Positions 9,508 through 59,895 of a DNA stretch of 64,000 bases are shown here, in pieces. Position 1 is the stretch's first letter; each line of letters opens with the position of its first letter. Origin of the DNA: an uncultured virus (IMG/VR IMGVR_UViG_3300017528_000566) (Duplodnaviria > Heunggongvirae > Uroviricota > Caudoviricetes). Below the pieces are notes generated by a model. That model saw only the letters and a list, made by a program, of their open reading frames with translations, did not search any database and had not been told where the DNA came from. The stretch lies in IMG/VR virus record IMGVR_UViG_3300017528_000566; one strand, given 5' to 3'. Both the position numbers and the translations under genes were made by a program.

Positions 9508-10986
9508 ATGGCGACCATACTCACTCAAGCGGAGTTTAACGAATCGATAGTCACGCAAGACACGGAGCCACAGTGGAGCGACGCCACACGTGGGCGCATT
9601 TTGGTGGTCGACGACGACCCGGGAAGCCGCGCGCTGCTCGCAGATGCACTGCGCGGAGAGGGCTACGAGGTCGAGACCGCTGCTGACGGTTTCAAAGCGC
9701 TGCCGAAGCTGCAGGAGTTCGCTCCCGACCTACTGCTCACGGATCTCAAGATGCCTGGTATGGACGGCATCCAGCTGATGCAGAAGGCCTTCGAGAGTGA
9801 GCCTGAGCCAGTGGCCATCCTGATAACAGGATCCAGCAGTGTTGACACAGCTGTGGCGGCGATGCGTGCTGGAGCGGAGGACTACATCACCAAGCCGATC
9901 AATATCGGCGAGCTACGCATCATCGTCCAACGGGCACTCGAACGCAGGCTGCTCACGCGAGAGGCTGGGCAACTTCGGGCACGAGTGGCGGCCCGTGATC
10001 GAATCGACAACATCGTTGGGCGCAGCGCTCCGATGCAGCAGGTCTTCGAGACCATCATGCAGGTGGCGCCTTCGCGAGCCTCGGTATTGATCTTGGGCGA
10101 ATCAGGCACCGGCAAGGAACTCGTCGCCGCGGCCATTCATCAGCATTCTCCACGAGCGAGCCAGCCGTTCATCAAACTGCATTGCGCCGCGCTGGCTGAA
10201 TCGCTGCTTGAGAGCGAGCTGTTTGGGCACGAACGCGGGGCCTTCACGGGTGCACTCATTCAACGTGACGGGCGTTTCAAGCAAGCCCACGGCGGCACGT
10301 TATTTCTCGATGAGATCGGGGAGATCTCGCCGGGCATCCAAGTCAAGCTTCTGCGCTTTCTCCAAGAGCGTGAGTTTGAACCAGTCGGCGGCAAGTACAC
10401 GGTCAAAGTCGACGTCCGAATCGTCGCAGCCACAAACCGAAACCTCGCAGAGGAAGTGAAAGCGGGGCGTTTCCGCGAGGACCTCTTCTATCGGCTGAAC
10501 GTGGTTACGATCGAGACCCCGCCGCTGCGTGCGCGGCCGTCGGACATCCCGCTTCTGGCCTTGCGCTTCCTGAAGAAGTTCGCCATCGAGAACGGGAAAG
10601 ACATAAGCAGCTTCACCATTGAAGCACTCCAACAGCTTCAGCTCTACAGCTGGCCTGGCAACGTGCGCGAGCTTGAGAACGCGATTGAACGGGCCGTCGT
10701 AGTGTGTCGGCACCACGAGGTGCGAACGCAAGACTTGGCCCAACATATCGTCAAAATCACGGGGCGAAACCCCGATGGGATGCCCATCATCCCGGGCGCT
10801 ACACTCGCCGAGCTCGAGCACTACGCGATATTGAAGACGCTAGAGCATACAGGCGGTGCGACGACTCGCGCCGCGGAGATGCTTGGCGTTTCAGCCCGCA
10901 CCATCCAGTACCGGCTGCGCGAATACGCAGAGAAAGCTGAAGCAAGCTCACAGTCGGGGCCTACAAGCAGGGGGACCCAAGTATGA
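9508..10986 (+). CDS. sigma54-dependent response regulator (NtrC/AtoC family; REC-AAA+-HTH)
   Basis: ILVVDDD...LLTDLKMPGMDG (REC), GESGTGKE, ELFGHERGAFTGA, LFLDEIGE, WPGNVRELEN, C-terminal Fis HTH (AAEMLGVSARTI). Confidence 0.96.
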   Translation: MATILTQAEFNESIVTQDTEPQWSDATRGRILVVDDDPGSRALLADALRGEGYEVETAADGFKALPKLQEFAPDLLLTDLKMPGMDGIQLMQKAFESEPEPVAILITGSSSVDTAVAAMRAGAEDYITKPINIGELRIIVQRALERRLLTREAGQLRARVAARDRIDNIVGRSAPMQQVFETIMQVAPSRASVLILGESGTGKELVAAAIHQHSPRASQPFIKLHCAALAESLLESELFGHERGAFTGALIQRDGRFKQAHGGTLFLDEIGEISPGIQVKLLRFLQEREFEPVGGKYTVKVDVRIVAATNRNLAEEVKAGRFREDLFYRLNVVTIETPPLRARPSDIPLLALRFLKKFAIENGKDISSFTIEALQQLQLYSWPGNVRELENAIERAVVVCRHHEVRTQDLAQHIVKITGRNPDGMPIIPGATLAELEHYAILKTLEHTGGATTRAAEMLGVSARTIQYRLREYAEKAEASSQSGPTSRGTQV

Positions 10987-27061: not shown

Positions 27062-28609
27062 CTACACTACGTTGACGTGGCCATCAGGCACGAGGGCGCA
27101 CTCGCCACCATCGAAGCTGATTACTAGGTGGTGCGTGCGAACGAGGCCGCCGATTATTTGGGCTGCAGACTCGGGTGTCATGTTCGGCTGGGCGTCGTTC
27201 ACGTCCTGTGCGATCACGAAGAAGGTCCACAAGCCCCGGTCTTCACCGGTGAAGTACGTCGCACCTGTATAGAGGCCGTCGTTTGCCTTCGCATCGGGGT
27301 TGTAGTCCCCGTTGTCTTGCATCGGTAGGACTCGCCACTGTCCCGCGGGGCCGGACAGGAAGCATTGGACAAACAGCTGGCTACCCGTGAAGAGCCGCTT
27401 GTCAGCGTCGTAGAACCTCCCCTTGACGATGAAACGCTCACGCTTGTACGTCCGGACCACGTCCGGTGCTGTGATCTCGTAGCGTGACAGCGTGTGGATG
27501 TTGGCGTGCTCTTCCGTTGCCGCGTAGGAGAACGTTCCGCCCGTCGTGAGTCGCTGATATTCCCACTTGGCACCGACTTTGAACGGCCTACCGAGCGCCA
27601 CTGGTTCACCATACGACAGCTGGACATGCAGCTTCTCGGCGAGCGTGAGTATCCCGGCTGCGACCGGCGTGTGGTCCTGTCCTTTTCGGATGGGGTCTCT
27701 GATGTCTGACAGGCCGGCAGCCGTTGCGACTGCGGCTGCAGCGGCTACGAGGCCCGCGGCTATGTAGCTGGTTCCACCGCCTGACGGGGCCAAGCCACAG
27801 CAATCCGGGGTTGGGCTCCCCTCACCTCCTGGACCGCCACTCGTAGTGACCTCGCCGCTTCCATCGACGGCTTCAGCGATCGCCGCTGCGACCAGCAGAA
27901 GGAATGCGATGATGCACAGGAGGATTTTCCACCAAGGGTCTTGGAATGGCAAATCCCCGTACTGACCGAGGAACGCGGGGGTTTCGGTGATCTCGACTGA
28001 GAAATTGACCGGCAGGTATTGGGGCAAGCAGAAGGTGAAATCGCTTCTTTTGCCACTGGCGATACCGTCGCGCACGTAGTCGAGCACTGACCGGCGATGG
28101 TAGGCGCCCTCTGGATTCGGGTTCGGGTCTCTCTTTTTGCAGCAGCCACACCCTCGGTTTTTCCCAGGGCGCGCGAACCCGTGGAAGGTGATCGCAATGC
28201 GTCCTTCCGGAGTGTCCGCGGTAAAGGCTCCGGTGGCCGAGTTGAAACTCACCTTGGTAACGAAGATCTTCTTGATGATGCGGTGACGTTCGGCTCCATG
28301 CTCGATGATGAAGCTGAGGTAATGCACTCCCGGCGTGGCGCCGCTGAAATTAGCTGTCCAGCGAAACAGGTTGCTTACCCCGGGGACGGCGACCGGTAGA
28401 GAATAGGTTGCGGCGGTGACCACGATCCCTGGGTCGTCGACGCTCTCTATGTAGACCTTGGCACCCGAGACTGCCGCGCCGCCGCTGTTGACGAAATGAG
28501 CGTTGATGTTTTGGGTCCCGATGGTGGACTCAAAAATCCCGTCGGGGAGCATTAGGCCCGTGATCGGTTCCGACGCGAACGGGCGGTTCGGAATATTGAA
28601 GTCAAGCAT
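27062..28609 (-). CDS. Ig-like/membrane protein with C-terminal choice-of-anchor-X-like motif
   Basis: 515 aa; central hydrophobic pair; MQDNGDYNPDAKANDGLYTG. Confidence 0.7.
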   Translation of the reverse strand: MLDFNIPNRPFASEPITGLMLPDGIFESTIGTQNINAHFVNSGGAAVSGAKVYIESVDDPGIVVTAATYSLPVAVPGVSNLFRWTANFSGATPGVHYLSFIIEHGAERHRIIKKIFVTKVSFNSATGAFTADTPEGRIAITFHGFARPGKNRGCGCCKKRDPNPNPEGAYHRRSVLDYVRDGIASGKRSDFTFCLPQYLPVNFSVEITETPAFLGQYGDLPFQDPWWKILLCIIAFLLLVAAAIAEAVDGSGEVTTSGGPGGEGSPTPDCCGLAPSGGGTSYIAAGLVAAAAAVATAAGLSDIRDPIRKGQDHTPVAAGILTLAEKLHVQLSYGEPVALGRPFKVGAKWEYQRLTTGGTFSYAATEEHANIHTLSRYEITAPDVVRTYKRERFIVKGRFYDADKRLFTGSQLFVQCFLSGPAGQWRVLPMQDNGDYNPDAKANDGLYTGATYFTGEDRGLWTFFVIAQDVNDAQPNMTPESAAQIIGGLVRTHHLVISFDGGECALVPDGHVNVV

Positions 28610-30786: not shown

Positions 30787-30974
30787 GGCGATGGCCAAAC
30801 CCCAATCGACAAAACCACGGATCGACTGGCACTTGGTTGTCTCTTTGCTGATGATCGGGCTCGCGTTCGTGGTCGGTGTCTGGACCCAGGCATGGTTGCT
30901 GCCATGGCTCCGCGGCGACGTTTGAGAGGATCCCTTTAGGGTCAAAAAAGACTTTGTGTGGATGGCTTATCGAG

Positions 30975-33446
30975 ATGCCATCCACAAGAAACCCAGTCGC
31001 CGTAGTCCAACCCGGGCCAGGACGTTTGCCTGCCGGGACTGTATCGGCAACATCTCTGTCTTTTGATCCATCTAGTGGAGGTGGTTCTGCCTCTCTTGAG
31101 GCACACCTTACCGACCCGAGCGGCGCTCACGCTGCCTCAGCGATATCAACGCTGGCGCTCACTGGTGAGCGGTGGAGCATTGGCGCTGACGACGTTCAGG
31201 ACACGCTGAAGAAGAGCTACGACGGGCTCAACGCTCGCGCGTACTGGGTCTTGGATGCCAATTCAGCCAACCTCGATGCGGACTTCAGCGGCCCACAAGC
31301 GCTCGACAATGCTGTTGCAGCCTTCGCGACAAGTCCCCGCAAGCCAGCCCTCTACTTACGCGCCGGGGTGTATTCGTGGGCTAACCAACCAAGCACTGTT
31401 TTGGATCGCGTCCGGATCTTAGGCGCTGGCGCGGGGCTTCCGGCCCCGACCAACACCCCAGTAGTCCAGATCAATGCCGTCAGCAATATGTTGATTGGCT
31501 ATGGGACAGTGATTGAAGGCGTGACTGTGTTCGCGGGTACCATCAATCTGGCTGGTGGTTGGGCTACATTGCGACGCGTAAGCCTGAATGCGTCTGCTGC
31601 ATTCAACAACTCGTCTGCCAACAACGTGCTTGAGTCCGTGTTTGTGAATGTCACAGCGTCGCAGACGCTAACGCTGTCCGGCGCGAATTTTTCGTGCCTT
31701 GGCGAGACAACCCTTACCTGCGCTGGCGCATCCACGATTGTGCAGTCAGGCAACCGCGGCAGTTTTATCGGCGGCAAGTGGTCCGCGGCGACGATCTCTG
31801 TCACCGGCACCAACAACACGTTTGTCGGTGTTGAACTCGCCGGCACGCTGAATCAAGGCACCAACAACTTCTACCTAACCCCAACGTCTACTACTACGGG
31901 AAACGTTACGGTCAGCGGAGCCCTTCAAGTCAACGGCAACACCGGAATACAGGACAACCTAACTGTCGGCAGTGATGGGACAGGAACTCTTGTGGTCAAT
32001 GGGCCGATCTTCGCATCAGGCGCTTCGGGCAACATCTCTGCTGATGGCAACTTGACGGTTGGTAATGACGGCTCTGGCAACCTTCAAGTCAACGGTACGA
32101 TCAGCTCGACGGGAGACGTAACAGTCGGCAGCGATGGATCTGGGAACCTTATAGTCAACGGCACGATCAGCACCTTTGTGAACCCGCTGACTGTGAACAG
32201 CAGCCTGAACGTTAGAGACGATGTAACAGTCGGCAGCGACGGCACTGGCAACCTTCAAGTCAATGGCACCATCGGCTCGACCGGCGACGTAACAGTTGGA
32301 ACCGACGGATCGGGGAATCTCTCGGTCAATGGCACGACAACCGGCAACGTCGTGAGCTCGAGCACTCCGACATATCAGATAGCGCAGTCAGCGCACAATC
32401 ATCCGGGCGTTCCGGCCAATCGATGGAAGCTCATAAGCGACTGGACACTCAGTGACGGCATACACGTTCGGGACTTCAGCGGAGAGGGCCAGTTTGCCGG
32501 CGGTACCGGATCCACTTGGTGTCGCACGCATAATGCAAGCTGGAACCCTGCGACTCAACAGTGGAGCCGAGACAATAACGGGCAAGAAGCGAACATCCTT
32601 CAGTGCGAGTACGGCGAACTGAAATGGTATGGGCAGGCAGCGGGTAGCGGGGCTTGGTCAGATGACTCTGGCTGGAGCAGCCCGGCCCGCGGCAATCTCA
32701 TGGTGGGGGACACGGTTGCCGCTCGGAACGTGACATCGAGTGGCCCGATGACAGTTGGGAACGGTCTGACTGTCAGCAGTGGTGGGATCACTCTCAACGG
32801 TACTGGTACGACCTCTTTAGGCGGGAACCTCGACGTCAATGGTAATGCCGACGTTTTGGGCGGCGACCTGCGTGTCCTAAACAGTCACAACTTCTCCGCC
32901 AATCAGATTACTGGAAACGCCTATAAGCTTGCCGGGGCTGCGACGGGCGTCGATCGTACAGGCTCCGTAGCCCAGAGGACGCATTGGCAAACGATTGACT
33001 TTGGTAACTGGGTACCAGGCATACCAGTCGCCTCAGCGATCGTCATGGACCACACTACCGGTGGTCTTGCGGCCAATACCTTCATCACTGCAGGCTCGGA
33101 TTTTTTCATTCGCATCCCGATGCGCTTTGTGAGTGGAACGCAGATCACGAGAATTCAGGCTTTTCACAAGAACACGGGGAGCACCCCCAATCAGTTCTCA
33201 CTTGTTAGAGTTGCAAGAAACTGGAGTTCCGGCGGGTCATCGATGACTAAGCCTATTAACGCGACATCCAGCGTTGCAGCGGGCACCGGGACGCTGGAGA
33301 TATTCGACGTCTTGCCTCTATACTCTCCGGCCACCATCAATAACGATTCAGATGCCTGGTACATTGAGATCAATCTGCAGGTAGCGGGTTCCTGGATTGA
33401 TGGTTTGCGTGTGGAGATTGTTGACCCCGGGCCGCGCAACGTCTAA
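30975..33446 (+). CDS. tail-fibre/adhesin-like structural protein
   Basis: AHLTDPSGAHAASAI motif, G/T/N/S-rich beta-helix composition, five internal (G/D)xxTVGxDG(S/T)GxLxVNG repeats. Confidence 0.75.
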   Translation: MPSTRNPVAVVQPGPGRLPAGTVSATSLSFDPSSGGGSASLEAHLTDPSGAHAASAISTLALTGERWSIGADDVQDTLKKSYDGLNARAYWVLDANSANLDADFSGPQALDNAVAAFATSPRKPALYLRAGVYSWANQPSTVLDRVRILGAGAGLPAPTNTPVVQINAVSNMLIGYGTVIEGVTVFAGTINLAGGWATLRRVSLNASAAFNNSSANNVLESVFVNVTASQTLTLSGANFSCLGETTLTCAGASTIVQSGNRGSFIGGKWSAATISVTGTNNTFVGVELAGTLNQGTNNFYLTPTSTTTGNVTVSGALQVNGNTGIQDNLTVGSDGTGTLVVNGPIFASGASGNISADGNLTVGNDGSGNLQVNGTISSTGDVTVGSDGSGNLIVNGTISTFVNPLTVNSSLNVRDDVTVGSDGTGNLQVNGTIGSTGDVTVGTDGSGNLSVNGTTTGNVVSSSTPTYQIAQSAHNHPGVPANRWKLISDWTLSDGIHVRDFSGEGQFAGGTGSTWCRTHNASWNPATQQWSRDNNGQEANILQCEYGELKWYGQAAGSGAWSDDSGWSSPARGNLMVGDTVAARNVTSSGPMTVGNGLTVSSGGITLNGTGTTSLGGNLDVNGNADVLGGDLRVLNSHNFSANQITGNAYKLAGAATGVDRTGSVAQRTHWQTIDFGNWVPGIPVASAIVMDHTTGGLAANTFITAGSDFFIRIPMRFVSGTQITRIQAFHKNTGSTPNQFSLVRVARNWSSGGSSMTKPINATSSVAAGTGTLEIFDVLPLYSPATINNDSDAWYIEINLQVAGSWIDGLRVEIVDPGPRNV

Positions 33447-33999: not shown

Positions 34000-34551
34000 T
34001 CACGAAGGCTTTGTGGTATTCGCCTTTGCCGCAATGATTTGGACCATGCCGAGTACCTCTGGTGGCAGGGTTGCTCGTTCGGCAGGCGTGGCCGGGCGTG
34101 GTGTCAGGGTGGTGTCAAAGCGCAGAACCGCGGCACAGTGCCCGCAAACGCAAAACTCCCGGGCGCGTGGCTTTGCCACGTCCAGTGTTCCTCTCGAGTT
34201 GAGGTTTGCGCCACATTGAGGACATGGGATCGCCGTTACAGCCTTCTTAGGGTGAGATTCTCCGCTGATAGCGCGCTTGAGCCCGAACACGATCTCGAGG
34301 CAAACCTCTGCCTGCGCAACTGTGCCTTCGCCATTGGTTGCAGCGTCCATCGTACGGAGTAATTCGCGTGTCTTGTGGCTGCCCCCTACGCGCCGGATCA
34401 GTTCAGGGACGAGCCCAGCGAGCACAGAAGTACCCCCTGGATACCCGAGTGGGTGAAACACGAGCTCGGTGCCCGGGTTGTCCGCACGCCATGCCTTGGC
34501 TGCAGCAAGCATCCGCTGGGCGTCGCGCTCGTAGCTTTCGGGGGTGACCAT
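34000..34551 (-). CDS. hypothetical protein with zinc ribbon
   Basis: CPQCG...CVCGHC. Confidence 0.7.
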   Translation of the reverse strand: MVTPESYERDAQRMLAAAKAWRADNPGTELVFHPLGYPGGTSVLAGLVPELIRRVGGSHKTRELLRTMDAATNGEGTVAQAEVCLEIVFGLKRAISGESHPKKAVTAIPCPQCGANLNSRGTLDVAKPRAREFCVCGHCAAVLRFDTTLTPRPATPAERATLPPEVLGMVQIIAAKANTTKPS

Positions 34552-34577
34552 TGTGCTCGTTTCCCTAGGTTGCTCGA

Positions 34578-35414
34578 CTAATGGGCAGCACTATGCGCCG
34601 CCGCGCTTATGATGCCATTGGCTTGGCTGCTGGCACCATTACCATTGATCGCTCGCGGCTCCCCGTGCGGAGCATCGGCGCCGAACCGAACTTTGTACGT
34701 GTCGATCGCTTTGTAGATCTTGCCCTTCCCGCACTTGTACCGGCGCATGAGTTTGGCAACATTGAGCTTCCCTTCTAGATATGCGTGAACCTCAGCATCG
34801 GAGGGGCCAGGCTTGGGTGCTCGGGCACCTGCTCCTGCCACGGCTGTTTTGGATTGGGCTTTGCCCTTGCTCGCTTCCAAGGCAGCCATTGCGACTCCCT
34901 TGGTCTTGTCGACGCGCAGCACATCCCGATCGTGATCCCACGCGGGCTTGCCTTTGACAATGTAGCCGATGCCCTTCTGCCAACGCCGGCCGTCATCAGG
35001 CATGCCAATGATGTCTTGGACTCGGCGGCGCAGCACTGACGTTGCAATACCCAGCTTCTCGCAGAGCTGGTGGGGAGCTACGTCACCACGGATGTTCTTC
35101 AGCACTTGCGATACGGGCACGTCCTTCCAGGTGCTGTTGCGCTTGCCTTTGAACGGGTCTGCCGCTGTTGCGGTTACCGCTGGGGATGGCTTAGTGCCAT
35201 CGGGCTTGGCCTTGGATTTGGGCTTAGGCTTGGCCTCGACTATCTCGATACCAGGCTGCGATATGATGACATCGTTGGTACTACTCAGTGCACGTAGTTT
35301 GTCTCGTGCCAGCTTTGCAGCTAGCTGAGTGCGTTCTACTTCAAGCGCCGCCGCCACAATAGGTCGGCAGTGGCCACATAACAGGGCATCGATTTGAGGG
35401 TCCATGCCGCGCAA
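34578..35414 (-). CDS. basic protein with two HTH-like segments
   Basis: PHQLCEKLGIATSVLRRR; NVAKLMRRYKCGKGKIYKAI. Confidence 0.65.
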   Translation of the reverse strand: MRGMDPQIDALLCGHCRPIVAAALEVERTQLAAKLARDKLRALSSTNDVIISQPGIEIVEAKPKPKSKAKPDGTKPSPAVTATAADPFKGKRNSTWKDVPVSQVLKNIRGDVAPHQLCEKLGIATSVLRRRVQDIIGMPDDGRRWQKGIGYIVKGKPAWDHDRDVLRVDKTKGVAMAALEASKGKAQSKTAVAGAGARAPKPGPSDAEVHAYLEGKLNVAKLMRRYKCGKGKIYKAIDTYKVRFGADAPHGEPRAINGNGASSQANGIISAAAHSAAH

Positions 35415-35438
35415 GATACTCCGCAGGCAGGCGGGGAG

Positions 35439-35454
35439 ACAAGACTAGTCTTGT
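35439..35454. promoter_or_regulatory. perfect 16-bp palindrome ACAAGACTAGTCTTGT
   Basis: Read directly; lies between the distal end of the array and the start of the 35414 gene. Confidence 0.6.
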
Positions 35455-35591
35455 TCTCCAGTCAACGACCTGTTCATCAATTCCTAGTCGCGTCCTAGTC
35501 ATAAGCGGCACATTTTAGCTTCCGCGCACTAGGGGTAGTCTAATCGCTGTAGGATGACCTAGGCAGAAGGATACAATGGGGCACGCTAACA

Positions 35592-36640
35592 GTCTCTACG
35601 TCTATACCTTTTGCAAAGGAGTAGAGCATCCATGCCGCCCGAGCATCACTTCAGTCATGCGTTCAGCTGTGTCGCGGCCACAAAAAGAGCCAGGCAACCC
35701 TGCAATGCTACACAGTCGCTGCAGCGAGAGAGCGGCGCAGTCATTTCGGCGATCTGAAGACCCACGGAGTCTCAGCTGCGAAAGCGATGAGCAACCGACG
35801 CAGCGCAACTTCTACGTGTCTCAACTTCCAAGGGAGCCGGAAACCGAGTCGGTGTCCCAGCGTTATCTAAAGCCTTGTAGGAGCCGAGCATCCATTCACG
35901 ATCGCTTGCGGGAGTCGTCGACCACCGCGTTGTGGTCTTAGCCCCCAAGGCCCTAAGCAGCTTATTCAGGGACGCTTTTCCAGGTGTCGGTCATGTCGTC
36001 TCAGTGACATCCCGAGGATTCTGAGCATCCCAGCCGCAAATCACTATGTCTGCGTGTGCTGCCAATCCATGTCGCTGCGCTTGCGCTGTGGATGACCTGT
36101 CTCAGCCGCGAAGGCCTCGGAGCATCCATTTTCGTCACAAGCTCCGCAGAAAGTTCTGAGCGTCTATCGACGGTGCCCCCAGTCCATGTCGCCGTTGTCG
36201 GCGCGCTGGAGCTTCGCTACGCGCCTATTCGGCCTCGTAGCAGCCGTCTCCATGCGGGCAGGTCCCAGTCCTGCGCTCGAAGGCTTTGAGCGGTCTTCCG
36301 TGCACCTGCTTGTCTCAGCGCGTTTCCCGCGTTCGCGGGTCTCAGCGTCAAAGGATCTGAGCACTCCTCCACTCACGGCTCCGCTGACATGGGGCGCTCG
36401 AATACGTCTCGGCGTCGGGTCAGTGTCGTCTCACCCTATTTCCACCGTTGACTGAGCGTCTATTCTGACGATGCCGGCGCAAATAGCGTGCCTACATCAG
36501 GGTACCGCGATCGAAGGCGCGGAGCATCCATTCCCAGTGTGCAGAGGTTCCAGTCCATGTCTCAGCTCCTAAGAATCTGAGCACCCATGCTGGCAGCCCA
36601 TGAGGCACACCGGTCACGATTCTAAACGTCGTAGTGCAGC
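35592..36640 (-). CRISPR. degenerate, hairpin-conserved CRISPR-like array
   Basis: On + strand, units GT-stem-loop-stem-CAYCC(ATT): clearest at 35715, 35769, 35935, 35998, 36099, 36339, 36502, 36559; weaker at 35592, 35671, 35818, 35865, 36134, 36188, 36268, 36428, 36613; unique intervening sequence; directly downstream of the cas12-like gene; no long ORF. Confidence 0.7.
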
Positions 36641-36776
36641 ACTGAGAGGCGATGCCGCTTTGGCGCATCGATCCCCTGGTCTGTGGTGAGCCCGATCTAG
36701 CGGGGTATCTCCGGCAGAGCCGCCTACGCATTCAATTGTCAGATAGCTTGGCCGAGCTCCATCGCACCGGCCACTG

Positions 36777-38810
36777 TCACTCAGCAGCTTCATCCTCCAA
36801 CGTCATCGCTAGCACGTTGAGCGCCGTGTTCTCATCTTGGTCAAAAAGCACCCCGCAGTGAGCACACTTGATGTAGATGGCCTGAGCTCGGTCAGCCTTG
36901 TGGGTGTGCCCGCACGCGTGATGAACCTCGCTGATTCCCCGCTCACTCTGCAGCACCATCGGGGTCTTTACAATCTCCACACCGGCGTTTCTCGCTGCCA
37001 GCTTGAGTGCCGCCATCAACTCGCCTTGTGCCGCCGTGTTGAAGTTCACGCGGTGGGCACGCTCAAGGTCGGACTCACCCTGTTCTGGTTTCGCTTTGTG
37101 CTTCTGCTCCGCGAAGTTTTGCGATGGCACTCGGATCGTCGCGTATTGCTGACACACCTCATGGGCTTCGCGTCGATAGCGGTCCTTGCGTCGACCATAC
37201 GCTTTGTGCCGAACGCCGGCTTCGTGCTGGCGCCCGTGGCGATCTTCCTGTGCCCACTTGTACAGCTCGCCGTAAATCTCCGCATCCCCCTCGAAGCGGT
37301 TTGCGCGCCAATGCGAGACGAGACTGTTGAGGCGCTCGATTGACTTCCATTGGCTTATCGTGCTGCGCGCAGAACGCTCACGTAGCCAGCTTGGCGTGAG
37401 GTCTTGGTGTTCACGTAGCCAACTCACGAGCTGGCCACGTACGGCTTCCAAGCCGGCACGCTGGTCTATTTGCTGGCTCCATCGGACGAGCACCTCGTAG
37501 ATCTCTTGGTCACCCCTGAAGCGGTTTCGTTGCTTTGCCCAGCGCTCGACCAGCTGTTCAAGGCGCCGGACGCTTGTGCTCTCCGCCAACGACTCTGAAG
37601 AAGTGCGAGTCAAGAGCCACTTGGGCGCATGGTCTTGATGATCACGTAGCCAGATCCGGAGCTGTTCTTTAGCGACGTTAAACCCGCGGTCCCGTTTGCC
37701 GTGTCGACCGTCCGCCCAGTCGAGCGAATCCTGGATCCCTTCACACGTAATTTGTCGCGAGCCCCCGTCGGTACCCACAAGGTATGCGACCCGCAAGACA
37801 TCTCCACCGGGGAGCTTCCGGAACCCAAAATTGATCGCAGCGATGTGCCCGTGGATTTTGAGCGGAACGTCAAAGCTTTTGTGCTCTAGCGAAAACCCGC
37901 AATCCCAGACCCGCTGGTCATCAGGGTGGCCCCATTGCCCCTTTGCCTCATGCTTACTGCGCCGGACCCATATCCACTTGATCTGCGCCCCGGGCGGCAG
38001 GGGGCGATGATATTTTAGTGGGAACTTCGCCCACACTGGCTGACGTCCCCCCTCCTTGGTCCCGACGCGTAACCACAGTTTGGCTTCGGTTGGATCTTTG
38101 GACGGGAACAGGAGCCGAGCTCGCGTGTCGGAACAAGCCAACAACGCCTCGGTGGTTAAGCCCTTGGATTGGTTAGCGGCACTGCTCTGGATCTGAACCG
38201 CCAACGATCCGGTGCGCTCATACCTCCGGAACTCTGGGGGCGCGCCTCTCCCGGCGTCCTTCAGGGAGTCCTCTACTCGAAGGTACGTGCCCCAAAAGGG
38301 GGCGTCTTCAGATTTGCGGGCCGCTCGGTTGGCTTCATAGGACCACTCTTGAGCGGCCTCTATGGCGGGCGATCTAGTTTGTCTATACTTAGCGTTAGCT
38401 AGCTCTTCTCTCAACCCGAAACCCGGACCACGCTCGGAGGTCTTGCGTCCAAGGAGTTGCTTGATCTGTTCGATGCGTTTCCGCTTTAGCGGATCAACAG
38501 GAACTCGAGCCCGTTGAGTCTGTCGGGGAGTCTTGATGGCCTCCCGCAGCGCTTCCATCTCTTGAGCTAGCTGCTCAATATTCTCGGTGAGCGCCGCTAC
38601 TTCGGGGAATTGCACGATCGCTTCATTGTAGCGCCGCCGTCGCGCTCGCTCGATTTCGACCAAGCGATTGCGGTAACGGTGCGCCAACAGCAGTTGGTCC
38701 TCAACTTGATCGCGTCCCTCGATCTCTACCTGGTGACTGAAAATCCCATATTTGTAAACTTTACTCGGGATTGCACTAGTCTTGCGTGCTCGGCTCTTCT
38801 TAGCTGCCAT
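36777..38810 (-). CDS. cas12m: Cas12m/type V-U1-like RNA-guided DNA-binding protein, RuvC predicted inactive
   Basis: VYKYG...LAHRYRNRLVEIER, FWGTY, GSLAVQIQ, FPLKYHRPLP, RuvC-I AINFGFR, QWKS.ERL, RHKAYGRRKDRYR, Zn finger HHACGH...CAHCG, RuvC-III FDQDENTA; motif order matches Cas12m as recalled. Confidence 0.82.
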   Translation of the reverse strand: MAAKKSRARKTSAIPSKVYKYGIFSHQVEIEGRDQVEDQLLLAHRYRNRLVEIERARRRRYNEAIVQFPEVAALTENIEQLAQEMEALREAIKTPRQTQRARVPVDPLKRKRIEQIKQLLGRKTSERGPGFGLREELANAKYRQTRSPAIEAAQEWSYEANRAARKSEDAPFWGTYLRVEDSLKDAGRGAPPEFRRYERTGSLAVQIQSSAANQSKGLTTEALLACSDTRARLLFPSKDPTEAKLWLRVGTKEGGRQPVWAKFPLKYHRPLPPGAQIKWIWVRRSKHEAKGQWGHPDDQRVWDCGFSLEHKSFDVPLKIHGHIAAINFGFRKLPGGDVLRVAYLVGTDGGSRQITCEGIQDSLDWADGRHGKRDRGFNVAKEQLRIWLRDHQDHAPKWLLTRTSSESLAESTSVRRLEQLVERWAKQRNRFRGDQEIYEVLVRWSQQIDQRAGLEAVRGQLVSWLREHQDLTPSWLRERSARSTISQWKSIERLNSLVSHWRANRFEGDAEIYGELYKWAQEDRHGRQHEAGVRHKAYGRRKDRYRREAHEVCQQYATIRVPSQNFAEQKHKAKPEQGESDLERAHRVNFNTAAQGELMAALKLAARNAGVEIVKTPMVLQSERGISEVHHACGHTHKADRAQAIYIKCAHCGVLFDQDENTALNVLAMTLEDEAAE

Positions 38811-38885
38811 CGGCCACTTCTCCGTTCGTCACCTACGGATGGGCTACCAGGCCGACGTTGCACTATGCGCTCGCCAATTTCAACA

Positions 38886-39152
38886 TCAGTATTCCTCGGG
38901 GAGTATTACCGTCGTTGAGCTACGGTTTGCTTCTGTGATGACCCAGAACACTTGCGTGCCGTCTCTATAGACCGACATGAGCCTGGAGCCGTCCTTGACG
39001 GCACGTTCATTCACCTGGCGGTCATGGTGATCCACGTCGCCCCAATCACCTTGAGCGTGCCGGGCGATTGCGATGAATACCGCGTCGGTGCTGATTCGTT
39101 CCGCAACACCGCAAGTCGTGATTAGCGCACCAAGGGGAAACCGTTCCATCAT
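38886..39152 (-). CDS. conserved plasmid/phage-related small protein
   Basis: FPLG...RHAQGDWGD...RLMSVY...WVITEANRSSTTVILPEEY. Confidence 0.85.
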   Translation of the reverse strand: MMERFPLGALITTCGVAERISTDAVFIAIARHAQGDWGDVDHHDRQVNERAVKDGSRLMSVYRDGTQVFWVITEANRSSTTVILPEEY

Positions 39153-39186
39153 GCCCTTTATACAAGCTAGCTCCGGAGTTCTTCAA
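39153..39186 (-). promoter_or_regulatory. TTGAAG-N17-GTATAA-AGGGC-ATG promoter-like motif
   Basis: Reverse complement of 39153-39186; same geometry as other copies; could drive the 39152 gene and cas12m. Confidence 0.65.
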
Positions 39187-39781
39187 CGAGGCGGCGCTGG
39201 GAGCGCCGTCGCGTAAGCGCCAGCAGAGCCTTCTTGCGGTGCTTAGTGCAGTGCGCGTACGGCTCGTTCGTGTGTGGGTTGATCTCGCAGGACTTACCAC
39301 AGGTGATGCAACACCCCTCCGCACGCCAGCGGGCTTTGCACTCGGCGACCCGCCTCGCGACATTCGCTGGCGGTTCGTTTCGCGAGCCCGAGCGTTTGCG
39401 GCTTCGCGTGATGGTACGGCGTTTGGCGATCGGCAGAGCCGCCCACTGAGCGCGACCGAGCCCGAGGCAGTGGTCGCAGAGGGTCATGCCATCTTCTGGC
39501 ACGTCGCCGCATTTTGGGCAGAGTCCGTCTAGCCGCCTATTTTCCTGCAGTTCCGCGGCGCGATTCGAGAAGTAATCGAGGCACTGCTGGCACGATTTGC
39601 GGCGCGCCGCCCGCTTACGCCCGCATTTACACAGCTTCTGGCTGCGCCGATGAGCAACCCGAGCTCGCAGCTTTGCATTGATCTCGGAGCGGCAGGGGTC
39701 GCACCGCTTGAAGCCCTTCGGCTGGGGTCGAATGTTGCAGGCGGTGCACTTCGGTTTCTTCACGGGGGCGGTTTCTAGCAC
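39167..39781 (-). CDS. Cys/Arg-rich multi-zinc-finger protein
   Basis: About 8 CxxC-type pairs. Confidence 0.7.
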   Translation of the reverse strand: MLETAPVKKPKCTACNIRPQPKGFKRCDPCRSEINAKLRARVAHRRSQKLCKCGRKRAARRKSCQQCLDYFSNRAAELQENRRLDGLCPKCGDVPEDGMTLCDHCLGLGRAQWAALPIAKRRTITRSRKRSGSRNEPPANVARRVAECKARWRAEGCCITCGKSCEINPHTNEPYAHCTKHRKKALLALTRRRSQRRLVEELRS

Positions 39782-41616: not shown

Positions 41617-41865
41617 TTAGCCGCCGATGATGCCGCGCATGGGCGGATCCGTCGCGAACCCAGTCGTACCCGGGAACGACGACCGCAGACACGCTGCGGG
41701 AAAGTCGCCGGACACGACGATACCATTGACAATCCACACACACTGGATAAGGCCGACCTCACCTTCGACGGTCGATACCCCAATTCCGCGGATCGTCATC
41801 TCTGGCGAGCCCGACTTGAGATAACACAACCCGCCAACCACAATATCTACAGTAGGTAACGACAT
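41617..41865 (-). CDS. YodC/DUF2158-family protein
   Basis: LKSGSPEMTI...QCVW...GDFP; SD GGAGG. Confidence 0.8.
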   Translation of the reverse strand: MSLPTVDIVVGGLCYLKSGSPEMTIRGIGVSTVEGEVGLIQCVWIVNGIVVSGDFPAACLRSSFPGTTGFATDPPMRGIIGG

Positions 41866-41898
41866 AGGACCTCCATACCTAGAATCTGATAAGAAGAT

Positions 41899-42153
41899 TC
41901 AACGCCGCTCGATGCCGCGGGTTGGCGGATGCGGCAGGAACCCTGGGCCTGAAGGCCTCAGTGTCAGAGTGTTGTGGAGAAAGTCTCCGGATTGCACCCA
42001 ACCATTTACAATCCAGACGCAGTGAACCAATGGGTTTAGGCCCTCTATCACCTCGGCTTCACCAACACCGCGTACGGTCATCGCCGGTGAACCCGACTTC
42101 AGGTACACAATCTGACCGACAACGAATTCTGTAGAATCAACAGGAATAGTCAT
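41899..42153 (-). CDS. YodC/DUF2158-family protein, tandem paralog
   Basis: VGQIVYLKSGSPAMTV...HCVW...GDF; identical GGAGGTCCTATG leader. Confidence 0.8.
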   Translation of the reverse strand: MTIPVDSTEFVVGQIVYLKSGSPAMTVRGVGEAEVIEGLNPLVHCVWIVNGWVQSGDFLHNTLTLRPSGPGFLPHPPTRGIERR

Positions 42154-43441: not shown

Positions 43442-43738
43442 CTAGCTTTCGGCCCCGCCCTTCTTTACCCACTTCGTGCCCCAGAGGCGTTCCTGCTCCA
43501 GGCGACTCTTGCGCATCTCCGGAGACTCGGGGGTCAACGCCGCGCCCGAGACCTCGTATCGGTCATTCGAAAACGAAGCCTCCACGCGCCACATGTCTGG
43601 GTCGTCATGGCCCTCGATCGCGTCGATCACGCGCACGTGAGTCTCGACGACTTTGCGCTCTGGTCGAGTCCACTGCACGCGAGCTATGTAGTAGTCGCCG
43701 ACCACGATTGGGGACTTTGAAGCCGAAGTCATCATCAC
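43442..43738 (-). CDS. hypothetical protein
   Basis: 98 aa, coupled to upstream stop. Confidence 0.6.
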   Translation of the reverse strand: MMMTSASKSPIVVGDYYIARVQWTRPERKVVETHVRVIDAIEGHDDPDMWRVEASFSNDRYEVSGAALTPESPEMRKSRLEQERLWGTKWVKKGGAES

Positions 43739-44076
43739 TCCTCTACTTCCGGAAATGTGTCTTCGATCGACTCGTGCTGTGGCCCGTCGAGCTCGTAGTC
43801 AGCGGAGATGCGCCCCTTGAAGACGGCGAACCGCAACATCAGGTTGTTCCCAGGCCCAAGCTGGTTATCTAGCCAGCCAACGCAGGGCACCTCCTTACCG
43901 ACCATGCTCTCATGGCAGGCCATGATCCTCATCTCGCCGACGAACCGCGGCTCACCGGGCCGCGCGATCGTATTCGTGAGATTGCGATGCTGGTCCGGGC
44001 AGTACCCGTTCGGAATGTCGTACGGGTCAGTGGTGACTTTCCACGGACACTTTGCGCATTGTCGACGTTTCGCCAC
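43735..44076 (-). CDS. Cys/His metal-binding protein (DUF6283-like)
   Basis: CAKCPW...MACHES...CVGWL. Confidence 0.7.
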   Translation of the reverse strand: MAKRRQCAKCPWKVTTDPYDIPNGYCPDQHRNLTNTIARPGEPRFVGEMRIMACHESMVGKEVPCVGWLDNQLGPGNNLMLRFAVFKGRISADYELDGPQHESIEDTFPEVEE

Positions 44077-47188: not shown

Positions 47189-47455
47189 TCAGCGGGGCCA
47201 TTTGTCGGGCTTCAACTTCAATCGTACAAGGTGCGTCTGTTTGAACTCGTCAGATAGCTTGGCGACCCGAACGGCGATGGTCCCCGTGTCATCACGTTGG
47301 ATCACGCAGTGGAGCTCGAGCTCGATCGCCTCTACCGATGCCTCTCCGGTGGGGGTTTTCCCATTCGTCGGCTTCAGCTCTTGGCGAACAGCATCGAGCA
47401 CCTCTGATAAACTCAGAGTCTGCGTTCTAATTGCTTCCGTGAGACGCGCCGACAT
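47189..47455 (-). CDS. Trypco2-like small protein
   Basis: LSEVLDAVRQEL...VEAIELELHCVI...THLVRLKLKP. Confidence 0.6.
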   Translation of the reverse strand: MSARLTEAIRTQTLSLSEVLDAVRQELKPTNGKTPTGEASVEAIELELHCVIQRDDTGTIAVRVAKLSDEFKQTHLVRLKLKPDKWPR

Positions 47456-47528
47456 GGTGCGGAGCGTACAGCACGGCCCTGTAAAACGAAAGGGCCAGCT
47501 TTCGCCGGCCCTTTCCACACGGAGGACA

Positions 47529-47569
47529 CTAGGGGGTGGCGCTGCGGGACGTTCAGCGCAACCCCCTAG
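47529..47569 (-). terminator. strong stem-loop directly after the AAA ATPase stop
   Basis: CTAGGGGGTGGCGCTG-N9-CAGCGCAACCCCCTAG; no U-tract. Confidence 0.5.
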
Positions 47570-47570
47570 G

Positions 47571-49841
47571 CTAGAGAGCTTCGCTGACCACCACCTTGGG
47601 CGCGATAGGCTTGGCACCGTTTGAAAGCCCATTCACGATAGCGCTCACGCTGGAGACGCGGATCATGCCGCTTACGATGGTGTCAGCTGCCTTCTCGAGA
47701 TCACTGCGCTCATCCGCTGGAGGATCTTCCAAGAGTCGGATATGGGAGATCATGCCTTGGGCTGCGATCCGCAGGTCCTCACCCTCAAGAAGGATCTGAT
47801 CGGTGTCGTCAGCGCGACAAATCGCAGCCAACTTGCTGCGCTCAACGACCTCTCGGATGATGGCCGGGATCTGTCCAGCCAGCTGCTCTGCTGCTGCTAA
47901 CAGTGCCCCATCGGTTGCGTGATCCAGCAGGCCGTTGGCATAATGCCGCATCAGCCGGATCACGGCGCTCTCATCAGGCGGGTCAACCGGTATCACGACG
48001 TCGAGACGTCCCGGGCGAAGCATCGCCTTATTGATCTTCTCTAGGAAGTTCGTCGTGAGCACCACCATGAGCTCGGCGTGCTTCATGTCGACGCCGTCGA
48101 TGGTGTTCAGAATGTCGTTCATCGCCTGGTCGCGGGCGCTCCCTTCCTTTTGCTCCATCGCCCGATCTATGTCTTCCGCGAAGATCACGGCGGGGGCGTA
48201 GCGGTTCGCAAAGCGCATCGCCCGGTCGAGGTCAGCGACGTCCTTCAGGTAGACGAACGTCCAGCCATTTTGGATGCAAAGCCGGCTCAACAAGGAAGCG
48301 GTGAGCGTCTTTCCGGTGCCGTACTTACCCGCCAACAGGACGCCGCGCTTCAATGGGATCCCGAGCTTGCGGCACCTCGCGGTATGTATGACTGGCGCAA
48401 ACAGATTGGTCTCGATCTGTTCTTGGACGTGGTCGCTCAGGATGAGCTGATCTTGTGGGTCAGCGACATCGATGAACTTCGGCGCGTAGTCCTTCGGATG
48501 GTAGCCGCGCTGTGCGGCCTCTTCGTCGCTTGGGAACGTGACCATAAAAGCCTTGCCCTTGTAGATGGACCCGACTTTGAGCTCCTCGCGGACCTGCGCG
48601 GCGATCTCGTCCATGATGGGCTTGTACTTGCGCTTGATCTTCCCCGTGAGCTGAAAAAAGAGTTGCTTCTCTCTGTAATCAACCCCGGCTTCGATCTTGC
48701 AATCGGGCATCAGAGGGATCGTGAAATGGCCCCACGGCACGTGCTGTACCTGGTTCACCCCTACCTGGACCTCGATCATGTACGGCGGGACCTCTCGATC
48801 GCCGAAGAAGGTCTGTTCAGTAGCGCCGGACTTGATCGCCGACCCAAAGCGCCGCTCAAGCACACGGCGCAATGCCAAAGCCCCGTCGAGCGGGTAAGCA
48901 TCGAAGCCGGCGCTCCATTGAATCTCCTGCTCCTTGCTCCTTTCGTCATTGGTGAGCCACTCGCGCGCTTTGGCGTGACTCATACCCGCTGGCAGGTGGA
49001 TGGTCTCATCCGGACTCTCTGCGATGGTGACGTTCGTGAACTGCAGTGTGGAACTTTGAGGCGTCGTCATCTGTGCTTCTGGCCCTTTCTGGAGGATCTT
49101 GGGAGCCCTGGTTGTTGGTTCTGGAACGATTACGCCGGAGGTGTCTTCGAGTTGCTTCAGGTTCCGGTCATCGACGTGGAACCTAAATCCTTGTTCGCGG
49201 GCGCGAAGCATCGCCTCCCGCAGTGCGCCATCCTTACGATCGATTTGGGGAACGACCGAGCCGTCTTCATACCAGCGGGACACGACGCTTGTGTCGGTCG
49301 CGATAACGAACACAAGCGCCGGTATTGTCGTGCTGTGCTCGGCTGTCGTGCCGCGTTCGGACAAATAGAGCTCAAAACCTTTATGGTCGACCCGAGTGCC
49401 TCCTAAGTAGAGAGCTTGGTCGCGTACCGGGATCCCATGGACCATCTCGGGTAACTCGCTACGCAGAGCAGGCATACGACCCGTTTCGACCCTGGGGTTA
49501 CTCTCGGGGAGTAATCCATCTGCAATCGCTCGCTCTAAGCCAACCTGAATGACATGAAAACTATCACTATCGATGTCCGCGACTCCTTCGGAATAGGCAT
49601 CCCAATTGGTCGAATCGGAGTACTGCCGGAGAGCCAAGATCCTCGCACTTTGCCGATCTTCGTCGCCTTCGTCCCACACAAGGTAGAGATCGAAATCCGC
49701 GTCGGGAGCCAAGAACTGGTACCAGGTTCCTGAATTCCAGCCCTCCGCAGCAAAGTACTCGTGGATATTCCAACGCGGCTGCTCACTAGTCACTCGGCGC
49801 CTCCCCTTTGGTTGGACAGCGACGGCGTTTCTATCATGCAC
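47571..49841 (-). CDS. AAA+ ATPase with long N-terminal extension
   Basis: RGVLLAGKYGTGKT (Walker A), IFAEDID (Walker B), LTTN, MLRPGRLD (SRH); alternative start ATG 49070. Confidence 0.9.
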   Translation of the reverse strand: MHDRNAVAVQPKGRRRVTSEQPRWNIHEYFAAEGWNSGTWYQFLAPDADFDLYLVWDEGDEDRQSARILALRQYSDSTNWDAYSEGVADIDSDSFHVIQVGLERAIADGLLPESNPRVETGRMPALRSELPEMVHGIPVRDQALYLGGTRVDHKGFELYLSERGTTAEHSTTIPALVFVIATDTSVVSRWYEDGSVVPQIDRKDGALREAMLRAREQGFRFHVDDRNLKQLEDTSGVIVPEPTTRAPKILQKGPEAQMTTPQSSTLQFTNVTIAESPDETIHLPAGMSHAKAREWLTNDERSKEQEIQWSAGFDAYPLDGALALRRVLERRFGSAIKSGATEQTFFGDREVPPYMIEVQVGVNQVQHVPWGHFTIPLMPDCKIEAGVDYREKQLFFQLTGKIKRKYKPIMDEIAAQVREELKVGSIYKGKAFMVTFPSDEEAAQRGYHPKDYAPKFIDVADPQDQLILSDHVQEQIETNLFAPVIHTARCRKLGIPLKRGVLLAGKYGTGKTLTASLLSRLCIQNGWTFVYLKDVADLDRAMRFANRYAPAVIFAEDIDRAMEQKEGSARDQAMNDILNTIDGVDMKHAELMVVLTTNFLEKINKAMLRPGRLDVVIPVDPPDESAVIRLMRHYANGLLDHATDGALLAAAEQLAGQIPAIIREVVERSKLAAICRADDTDQILLEGEDLRIAAQGMISHIRLLEDPPADERSDLEKAADTIVSGMIRVSSVSAIVNGLSNGAKPIAPKVVVSEAL

Positions 49842-52078: not shown

Positions 52079-52397
52079 CCTGTTGGCGCGACCGCAGGTA
52101 TAGTCGGGCCTCCTCCGCGGAGCAGTTCCGATTGCGAGCGACCTCCCCTATCACGATCTCCTCGTCGATTAACAGCGCTTGTACGCCGCCAAGGCAGCGC
52201 TGGAGCTCGACAAAAGCGAGGCTGATCTCCTGGTAGCCGAGCATCGAGGCGCGCTCGTAGTCCTTTTCCCGGAGCGCCTGCTCAAGCGTGGCGACTTGAT
52301 TCCGCAGCTCATCCGCGGCTGACATTGTACTTGAGGCCTCTTGTTCCATCTCACGTGCAATGGCTGTTGCGGCGTCCACAAAGTCTTGAAGGCTCAT
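52065..52397 (-). CDS. helical hypothetical protein, paralog of 13463-13837
   Basis: ASMLGYQEISLAFVELQRCLG...VARNRNCSAEEA. Confidence 0.75.
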   Translation of the reverse strand: MSLQDFVDAATAIAREMEQEASSTMSAADELRNQVATLEQALREKDYERASMLGYQEISLAFVELQRCLGGVQALLIDEEIVIGEVARNRNCSAEEARLYLRSRQQVTPV

Positions 52398-53482: not shown

Positions 53483-54007
53483 TCACCAGACAGGGTCATC
53501 CTCTGCCAGGGCAACAACGGTGCGCTCCACTGGCTCGAGCGGCAGCTCGGTACCTGTCACAAACTCATACAGGTCTCTAGAGATCCCTAGGCAGCGCACC
53601 ACCTCATGTGGCGCCGCACCGCGAGACAACAGGTCGCGGATGGGAGCCTCAAAGATCTCAACATCACTGATCTTGACCCCGCAGTCAGTGAACGTTGGGA
53701 GCTGCTCAATGAATGGCCAAACATCTTGAGACGGCACTCCTAGTGCCTCCGCCACGTTGAACAGCTCCTCCGAGACACTCTTGTAGAGCCCGGCTTCTGC
53801 GTAGCTCCTTAGCGCCCCTCGACCGGCGTACCGGACAACGTCCCCCTGCACAACCTTGGCGTTTACGTAGGCCGCTTGCTGCTTTTCGTTCATCCGTACC
53901 TCTACAGAGAAGCCTAGAGATGGCAGGTCGTAGTGATGCTTGACCGGCCACTCATCTCCGTTGAGGGTTAGGATGTGCTCCGTCATTCGGAGTTGAATGA
54001 GCTTCAT
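53483..54007 (-). CDS. DEWP-family protein with C-terminal HTH-like segment
   Basis: Similar to 49929-50273; C-terminal APHEVVRCLGISRDLY. Confidence 0.7.
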   Translation of the reverse strand: MKLIQLRMTEHILTLNGDEWPVKHHYDLPSLGFSVEVRMNEKQQAAYVNAKVVQGDVVRYAGRGALRSYAEAGLYKSVSEELFNVAEALGVPSQDVWPFIEQLPTFTDCGVKISDVEIFEAPIRDLLSRGAAPHEVVRCLGISRDLYEFVTGTELPLEPVERTVVALAEDDPVW

Positions 54008-59363: not shown

Positions 59364-59895
59364 GTTCGGCGAGGACTGGATCGCATTGCTGCGCACCCGA
59401 ATCGTTGATGTTGGGTCGCTGGCAGACTTGTTCCGCAAGGTGGGTACGGAGATCGAGTCCCCAAAAGTCATTCGGCAGGCGCAGCTACTTGACCGCTACT
59501 CACAGGGCCTGGAACAGCTCATCAAGCTATCCGTGAAGATGGGGGACCTCGGTGAGCAGTTGCGTGTTCGAGCGCAACGGCAGGACCCTCGGAAGGACCC
59601 AGAGTCTGCGCCGGTCATCAAAGAGCTCCAAAAGACATGCACGGAGGCCGAACGCCTTGCTCATAAGGTATTCGGAATGTCTGTGGATTGGACCCTCGAA
59701 GAGGACATCGGCAGTGGAACGGGGCTCTCTGAGTTTCTGAACAAGAGGCGTCAGCAAGATGACAGGGAGCTGGAGGAGCTGTTCGGGGGAGACCTGAACG
59801 AGCTGGTAGACGACTTTTTAGAGGAAATCACCCGTCGCCGGTACGACTTCCGCCCTCTGCAGTCACGCCCATCCCTTCTGCGACGCCGGCTCTAG
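59356..59895 (+). CDS. coiled-coil hypothetical protein
   Basis: 179 aa, overlaps previous stop. Confidence 0.7.
   Translation: MPKFGEDWIALLRTRIVDVGSLADLFRKVGTEIESPKVIRQAQLLDRYSQGLEQLIKLSVKMGDLGEQLRVRAQRQDPRKDPESAPVIKELQKTCTEAERLAHKVFGMSVDWTLEEDIGSGTGLSEFLNKRRQQDDRELEELFGGDLNELVDDFLEEITRRRYDFRPLQSRPSLLRRRL

Follow-up and report, generated by a model that had tools for sequence, protein, structure and literature searches.

Can a CRISPR array whose repeats have drifted apart still serve its effector, and if so, as an immune memory or as a fixed set of guides? This question is raised by a locus in 64,000 nucleotides of DNA from an uncultured virus (IMG/VR record IMGVR_UViG_3300017528_000566), the whole stretch being called the window here. 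The locus comprises a gene for a 677-aa protein of the Cas12m (type V-M) family, a leader directly behind it and a degenerate, irregular Cas12m-type array of about 12 repeat-guide units (35592..36594), all on the minus strand. Work on Cas12m treats it as a natural CRISPR interference (CRISPRi) protein and a compact scaffold for editing; the arrays that accompany it in nature are taken to be immune memories. The array described here no longer behaves adaptively: its repeats have drifted apart and their spacing is irregular, and its units keep a pseudoknotted handle that ends in AC. Given an intact and constrained protein, handle-gripping residues, folded handles and at least five constant guide starts, a hard-wired guide set is the most economical explanation. 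The locus is thus probably a non-adaptive, hard-wired multi-guide silencer, in which a large mobile element from soil carries Cas12m together with its leader and what was once a CRISPR array.

An earlier reading of the window, made from the sequence only, had described a 677-aa open reading frame (ORF) with Cas12m-like motif order, which was found at 36777..38810 with the motifs as described. We compared it with known structures using a profile (A1) of 12 relatives, which were all that a word-indexed search returned. The profile matched solved Cas12m chains over the whole length (23vw_A at E = 1e-137, positions 10-562 of 568; Cas12m2 at 2e-80; 8pm4 at 2.4e-75; UnCas12m4a at 1.3e-54). The next-best chain was a TnpB-like protein at 8.5e-13, and ISDra2 TnpB followed at 2.9e-6. 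When the single sequence was searched against solved chains, all five matches were Cas12m, the best at 9.3e-31. An AlphaFold2 model of the protein had a mean predicted local distance difference test score (pLDDT) of 77 and a predicted template modelling score (pTM) of 0.52. Foldseek placed Cas12m structures at ranks 1-4 (8hhl, 8pm4, 8hio and 8hhm, 8.7e-24 to 4e-18), followed by Cas12f at 1.6e-10, the global template modelling score of the model against Cas12m structures being only 0.32-0.42. Library models were nearly blind to the protein: the Pfam Cas12f1-like TNB domain scored 21 bits, which is under the Pfam cut-off, the NCBIfam model IS200_TnpB scored 15 bits against a cut-off of 425, and the transposase family phrog_506 matched at 1.9e-7. 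The family itself is large, with 2,876 cluster representatives at E <= 0.001 and 831 at E <= 1e-30 in an exhaustive HMMER search. The protein is a true, divergent member of the Cas12m family, as the earlier reading had supposed.

The residues expected to hold the CRISPR RNA (crRNA) are in place. His268-Arg269 of the WED domain (YHRPLP, 38004..38009) align with His269/Arg270 of Cas12m2 (VHRWLP), Arg269 being invariant. The corresponding residues of Cas12m2 recognize two features of the crRNA handle, its final base C(-1) and the G(-23):A(-2) pair (PMC10442227). The TNB zinc-finger ligands H630, C633, C649 and C652 (36855..36923) have the spacing H630-x2-C633 and C649-x2-C652; the three cysteines are invariant in alignment A4, and an HCCC zinc finger has been described for Cas12m2 (PMC10442227). 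At the C-terminus, the window protein and many other members of the family carry a short acidic tail of the form ...(E/A)AAE (36777-36790 in the window; alignments A1 and A4). To our knowledge no function has been assigned to this tail.

The arrays of relatives provided a reference for the DNA behind the gene. Periodic repeats were present in 52 of 96 fetched relative loci, mostly directly 3' of the gene and with a period of about 73; many of the remaining loci were contigs that end near the end of the gene. The gap between gene and array was roughly 160-190 nt in relatives. Arrays of relatives reached 20-30 repeats (L001, L003 and L068). An alignment of 29 distinct foreign repeats of 36 nt was almost gapless and had AC at the end. 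These repeats fit the published pseudoknot, the pairings of which were taken from PMC10442227 and the preprint 10.64898/2026.03.26.714355: 88.9% of the cells were paired, 9 of 9 pairs covaried, and none of 500 shuffles scored as high. From the 29 foreign repeats alone we built a covariance model, R1. Single shortened units (spacing 47-60 compared to about 73) were seen within the otherwise regular arrays of L071, L003, L001, L092 and L095, so that partial erosion seems common in the Cas12m family.

Behind the stop codon of the window gene we found 1,185 bases (35592-36776) with repeated motifs and without any family-matching ORF, in agreement with the non-coding, repeat-bearing DNA that had been noted there. 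A cryptic guide array had been suspected in it, and the repeats indeed have Cas12m crRNA architecture. The 182 nt from the stop codon to the first repeat (36595..36776) are read as a leader; their length matches the gene-to-array gap of the family. This stretch is conserved in L013, a 44-kb metagenome contig with a related locus; the 3' end of the gene together with about 170 nt of leader (36608-36899) has 79% identity to it. The fold of the leader was not unusual (z 0.17), terminator-like sites in 35300-39300 were at or under the shuffle level, and Rfam detected no relevant family in 34500-39500. A k-mer array finder detected no regular array of near-identical repeats with unique spacers of about 36 nt in the window, in L012 (the same sequence as the window) or in L013.

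Reading away from the gene, the array begins with unit a (36559..36593), a full handle with the stem CTCAG/CTGAG that ends in AC (R1 match 36559-36594). Unit b follows with a full handle at 36339..36373, seen by strand reading and by R1. The handle of unit S1 (36262..36299) has the stem CUCA/UGGG and a 6-nt insertion relative to L013, and its guide (36230..36261) is identical to L013 8456-8487 at 32 of 32 positions. Unit d has a handle with a weak stem (36099..36135), and the next unit, d2, consists of the handle stub GCGAC and its guide (36055..36075). Unit e has a full handle at 35998..36037 and its guide at 35982..35997. Unit f (35935..35969), a full handle with the compensatory stem CTTAG/CTAAG, is the best R1 match in the window (E 0.037). 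The full handle of unit g (35854..35900) has a long loop and precedes guide g (35838..35853). Unit i (35769..35803), again found by strand reading and R1, is a full handle, and unit k (35715..35750; R1 match, E 0.21) is a handle ending in GCGAC. The last full handle, that of unit j with the stem CTCTAC/GTAGAG (35592..35638), is followed by guide j at 35576..35591. Stems are thus intact in seven units (a, b, e, f, g, i and j) and weakened or truncated in S1, d, d2, k, a2 and h.

Although the stems vary between units, they stay complementary (CTCAG/CTGAG, CTTAG/CTAAG, CTCTAC/GTAGAG and CTCGGC/GCTGGG). Five of the nine best R1 matches in the window (E <= 1.1) fell within 35715-36594 on the strand of the gene, a stretch that makes up less than 1% of the sequence searched. 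On L013, five of the nine best matches likewise fell within 8244-8893. A scan for TGCT followed by a stem of at least 4 bp and GAC gave 7 occurrences within 1,061 nt of the gene's strand, compared to 33 on both strands of the remaining window, an excess of about 25-fold (Poisson P 2e-8). Across 18 units from the window and L013, all of which end in GAC, the pseudoknot was 89.7% paired compared to 78.4% for shuffled sequences (none of 500 reached the observed value) and 25-58% for slid partners. The units had been chosen without regard to helix 1, which was 85.2% paired. Unit S1 was misaligned at its 3' end by MAFFT (alignment A5); it was kept in and lowers the pairing score.

The repeats have only short cores in common and fall into families that include D3, D5 and D7. 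The distance between handle ends is 26-220 nt in the window and 50-102 nt in L013, whose array is the shorter and more regular of the two. The window array has been enlarged by internal duplications (families D3, D5 and D7). Guide S1 carries GGAGAC at its positions 11-16 and may represent two stacked 16-nt guides, the first with a handle-like 3' end. Four isolated Cas12m-handle-like sequences lie outside the array, one found by a regular expression (5-bp stem) and three by R1 (E 0.15-0.46), at 53701-53732(+), 27704-27730(-), 52185-52220(+) and 59457-59488(-); they may be chance occurrences or solitary repeats.

The comparison with L013 showed which parts of the locus are held constant. L013 is collinear with the window over about 33.3-44.1 kb, such that the two loci are orthologous. 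Their cas12m genes encode proteins of 84% identity, with a synonymous divergence (dS) of 1.37 and a nonsynonymous divergence (dN) of 0.094 over 676 codons. The resulting dN/dS of 0.069 shows strong purifying selection on the protein. Of the synonymous sites, 63% differ (proportion pS 0.63), which is near saturation, so that unconstrained DNA should be unalignable at this distance. Ten units were paired by position between the window and L013, and the first 16 bases after the handle AC were compared. Guide starts were conserved at all 16 positions for S1, at 15 for d2 and for e, and at 13 for g and for j; for unit d, 9 of the first 12 positions were conserved. In a control of 90 non-orthologous pairings the mean was 3.9 of 16 and the maximum 11. 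The conserved blocks begin exactly at the handle AC, and those of d2, e, g and j give way to frequent mismatches from about position 13-17. This onset fits the heteroduplex of Cas12m2, reported as 17 bp long (PMC10442227). The two sequences show purifying selection on the guide starts as well as on the protein.

The array was also stable between samples. Contigs from 4 soil or rhizosphere runs (4 studies), one of which may be the sample of origin, carried the same array at >99% identity, with point changes and small indels as the only differences. The indels measured 11 nt (at 36461), 7 nt (at 36603) and, in a few cases, 1-4 nt. No gain or loss of a unit was seen in the contigs of these 4 runs, one contig covering 35400-38860.

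Within the window and L013, searches for targets of the guides gave matches at the level expected by chance. Sliding 20-mers with at most 3 mismatches produced 12 matches in 7 places of the window, which is about chance level. An 18-mer match at 12313 was considered as a target and judged to be chance, because part of it lies in the handle and 2 mismatches fall in its centre. For 12 of 13 unit starts, neither the window nor L013 contained an exact seed match of at least 11 nt beyond the array, and the start of unit S1, searched by pattern in the window, gave no match.

Several observations weigh against a hard-wired silencer. The comparison across deep divergence rests on one independent ortholog, L013, and four of the ten paired guides (a, h, i and k) are unconserved, with 2-7 of 16 positions identical and thus no better than the control. 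Several units (a2, c and h) are mere fragments. The pairing of helix 2 in the 18 units is partly given by construction, as 14 of them were chosen by their stem. Contigs drop rare variants, so that the four runs show the common form of the array alone and rare variants may exist. No sigma-70-like promoter or consensus was detected in the leader or in 35300-39300. Within the 64-kb window there was no target at up to 3 mismatches in 20, nor any exact seed match of at least 11 nt, and 18-mers compared with all 96 loci gave chance-level results. Guide S1 had 0 matches in IMG/VR, both as a 32-mer and as a 22-mer, and the whole array had no match among INPHARED phages. At up to 3 mismatches, the 32-nt guide S1 was found in 0 of 806 genomes (0/4, 0/401 and 0/401), which were non-exhaustive samples of two phyla.

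These points would in part be accounted for if the array were a decaying remnant, i.e. a once ordinary phage-borne Cas12m array that erodes without spacer supply and in which the conserved blocks have causes unrelated to guiding, such as promoters, binding sites or a recent recombination of the two elements. The irregular spacing, the fragmentary handles, the internal segment duplications (D3, D5, D7), the four unconserved guides and the lack of a found target all agree with erosion, as do the shortened units in regular arrays of the relatives L071, L003, L001 and L092. We assign this explanation a small but appreciable probability, since the protein is under strong purifying selection, compensatory changes maintain the pairing of the handles, and the blocks start at AC and thin out from about position 13-17 in four of five guides at a distance where neutral DNA is unalignable. 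The units could alternatively be a regulatory or decoy RNA cluster that acts on Cas proteins, either in autoregulation of cas12m or by sequestering a host Cas12m in the manner of an RNA anti-CRISPR, rather than guides. Regulatory mini-arrays are characterized by stand-alone repeats that are degenerate and have short conserved seeds (preprint 10.1101/2023.03.03.530964), and the units resemble these. They lie, however, behind the gene after a normal leader, which is the usual place of the array in the family, and no unit seed of at least 11 nt matches the surroundings of cas12m or any other part of the window or L013. A decoy alone would moreover leave the conserved guide starts unexplained, and we regard such a role as unlikely.

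That the array is still adaptive and filled in trans by an adaptation module of the host is very improbable. Virus-borne CRISPR loci usually come without cas1 and cas2 and yet carry many spacers, as seen for the long arrays of L001, L003 and L068. In the window, however, the repeats diverge from one another far more than in the array of any relative; the window, L012 and L013 are negative in an array finder that is positive for 52 of 96 loci; the order of units and five guides are common to both sequences across a dS of 1.37; and no unit turnover was seen in the contigs of the four runs. An ordinary TnpB of an IS200/IS605 insertion sequence (IS), with an omega RNA inside IS ends, is ruled out. 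The phrog_506 match and the sub-cut-off TNB domain are the signals in its favour; full-length matches were obtained with Cas12m alone, no TnpA was hit among the 111 other ORFs scanned against Pfam, the locus occupies a syntenic place in L013, and the RNA elements behind the gene are crRNA handles and not an omega-RNA scaffold overlapping the gene end. A grouping with ordinary TnpB, which the sequence-only reading had named as the outcome that would speak against its proposal, was therefore not seen.

The RuvC triad of the protein is N327-P562-D659. Asn327 in RuvC-I (AINFGFR, codon 37830..37832) occupies a site that is Asp in 9 of the 12 relatives of profile A1. In RuvC-II (IRVPSQNF), which had been described as lacking an acidic residue, Pro562 (37125..37127) stands where relatives carry Glu or Asp; proline is also present in P0002, P0003, P0013 and P0014. 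RuvC-III is intact (FDQDEN), with Asp659 (36834..36836) retained and invariant in alignment A4. Among 67 family proteins from fetched loci the triads were D-E-D in 34, N-D-D in 6, N-E-D in 5, N-A-D in 3, N-P-D in 3 and others in 16. The N-P-D trio consists of the window protein, its identical copy in L012 and the protein of L013. The nearest representatives likewise combine Asn with Pro (P0013 at 51% identity, P0003 at 49%, P0014 at 44%), and P0015-P0017 have Asn with Ile or Gln at RuvC-II. In a FastTree phylogeny of 67 rows the window clade formed a long, well-supported branch (stem 1.46, support 100), and the tree did not resolve its position within the family.

Altered triads have been listed for Cas12m before, namely HEK/HQK, HDD, DED/NED and DND (PMC10442227). 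Members with D-E-D, H-D-D and N-D-D silence by binding and none of them cuts, while their processing of pre-crRNA is independent of RuvC (PMC11013384). A dead-looking RuvC site is thus ordinary for Cas12m, and the proline at RuvC-II is a further variant; the N-P-D triad is absent from the triads named in PMC10442227 and PMC11013384. By analogy, the N-P-D protein would bind DNA without cleaving it. As a non-cutting RuvC is the norm in Cas12m and Asn at RuvC-I had already been described, being nuclease-dead, which the sequence-only reading had pointed out, is not what sets the locus apart. Nor does the triad account for the odd array, since relatives with degenerate triads keep regular arrays (L021, L003, L006, L039 and L055).

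A second peculiarity of the protein is a tandem duplication within a helical insertion between RuvC-I and RuvC-II. Copy 1 (aa 383-447, 37470..37664), identified by BLASTP against copy 2, and copy 2 (aa 460-522, 37245..37433), which is the one alignable with relatives, have 45% identity over 65 aa (E 4e-18). Among the aligned relatives the extra copy is confined to the window protein (P0001) and its 84% ortholog (P0002). In agreement with this lineage-specific duplication of about 65 aa, solved Cas12m chains have about 580-615 aa compared to 677 aa here. The duplicated insertion is taken to correspond to the REC2 region, an assignment that comes from the profile alignment and from PMC10442227 and not from a superposition. 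REC2 of Cas12m2 contacts the PAM-distal heteroduplex (PAM, protospacer-adjacent motif; PMC10442227).

In a more specific form of the hard-wired silencer, which we put forward tentatively, the CRISPR array would have been converted unit by unit: its guides, each about 16 nt long, would now be fixed and vertically inherited and would serve a RuvC-dead Cas12m in which a helical, REC2-like module is duplicated. Through them the mobile element would silence defined genes of its host or of rivals, such that the system would be a multi-target, CRISPR-derived counterpart of TldR. In the mechanism proposed for the silencer in general, the array region would be transcribed from the leader and the transcript cut into crRNA-like RNAs, a step for which RuvC is not needed in studied Cas12m. 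These RNAs would be loaded onto the N-P-D protein, which would then bind matching DNA next to a PAM and block transcription or replication without cutting. The fixed targets would lie outside the 64-kb window.

If it is true, this lineage with a frozen array would represent a domestication of CRISPR immunity, on a mobile element, for the regulation of genes. Signs of such domestication would be repeats that drift while the handle still folds, and guide starts that stay constant across near-saturated synonymous divergence. The locus also offers a natural test of the minimal Cas12m repeat and guide, i.e. a handle followed by about 13-16 nt, and its N-P-D protein with the duplicated helical module is a new natural variant of the scaffold.

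Compared with characterized Cas12m systems (MmCas12m2 8hhl, GoCas12m 8pm4, PmCas12m and 23vw_A), the locus shows full-length homology and the same fold, and it retains the zinc finger and the His-Arg pair of the WED domain. It further shares the order of gene, leader and array, the pseudoknot handle ending in AC, the absence of adaptation genes and of genes resembling a trans-activating crRNA (tracrRNA) nearby, and an altered RuvC site as in the described HDD, NDD, NED, DND and HEK/HQK variants. It differs in its irregular array, its dissimilar repeats and several guides that are fixed across deep divergence rather than turning over. A Cas12m borne by a phage has been reported once, in the myxophage MV-1 and with a regular array (preprint 10.64898/2026.09.14.751636), and 11 relatives of the gene were located here on IMG/VR viral contigs. 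With these phage-borne systems the locus has in common an effector-only organization on a mobile element and an array directly 3' of the gene, and in neither case have targets been identified. The triad of MV-1 is D-E-D, and its array is regular, with eight spacers and one consensus repeat, whereas the array here is eroded and fixed and no phage hallmark family was found in the window.

In concept the locus resembles TldR or the regulatory CRISPR-like (cr-like) RNAs, and it is a member of neither. TldR, a TnpB-like nuclease-dead repressor (PMC10705468), is likewise an RNA-guided protein of the RuvC family that has lost cutting and that, with inherited, fixed guides, binds DNA and represses transcription. 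It is, however, derived from TnpB and much smaller, and has one guide of the omega-RNA type with a promoter target adjoining its own locus, compared to a 677-aa Cas12m with several crRNA-type guides and no guide match in the window. Mini-arrays of cr-like RNAs share degenerate repeats, conservation at the seed end and a non-immune, regulatory use of Cas proteins (preprint 10.1101/2023.03.03.530964). They are units of one to two spacers beside a normal array that usually target a cas promoter; here a whole array of about 12 units is of such kind and has no match to the cas12m region. Cas12m arrays that are frozen or eroded were not described in any of the literature that our searches returned.

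The carrier had been called a phage-like element. That it is a mobile element is likely, whereas the phage character found no confirmation in the window: families of capsid, terminase, portal and tail proteins were absent in scans with Pfam and with PHROGs (106 ORFs). The earlier observation that the window lacks cas1, cas2, cas4 and tnpA held, with zero such Pfam families among 111 other ORFs (>=70 aa, non-nested; 32 + 79), the effector having been scanned separately. Many ORFs of the window match no family; among those that do are an RNase H, an N6/N4 methylase and a protein with an anti-repressor-like domain. A 198-aa fragment of a tyrosine integrase (Pfam 4.6e-24) at 2646-3242(+) lies near the N6/N4 DNA methylase at 4300-5364(+). 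Amid unmatched ORFs, a complete sigma-54-dependent response regulator with receiver, AAA+ and Fis-type helix-turn-helix domains is encoded at 9172-10986(+), an unusual cargo for a phage-like element. An 856-aa protein (30876-33446(+)) has many copies of a GSDGxGNLxVNGxI-like motif and looks fibre-like by eye, with no match in Pfam or PHROGs. At 47189-49841(-) a 147-aa Trypco2-domain protein follows directly after a 756-aa AAA/nSTAND3 ATPase (phrog_10440, E 1.6e-112), and the two form a candidate defence-type gene pair.

Closer to the effector, 75 nt upstream of cas12m, its strand also carries an ORF of 88 aa (38886-39152(-)) that is conserved in L013 (71%, tblastx). For a Cys-rich 204-aa ORF farther upstream (39167-39781), tblastx gave no match in L013, where other DNA occupies the place. 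Two adjacent small DUF2158 proteins (41617-42153(-)) and a DUF6283 protein (43735-44076) are all conserved in L013.

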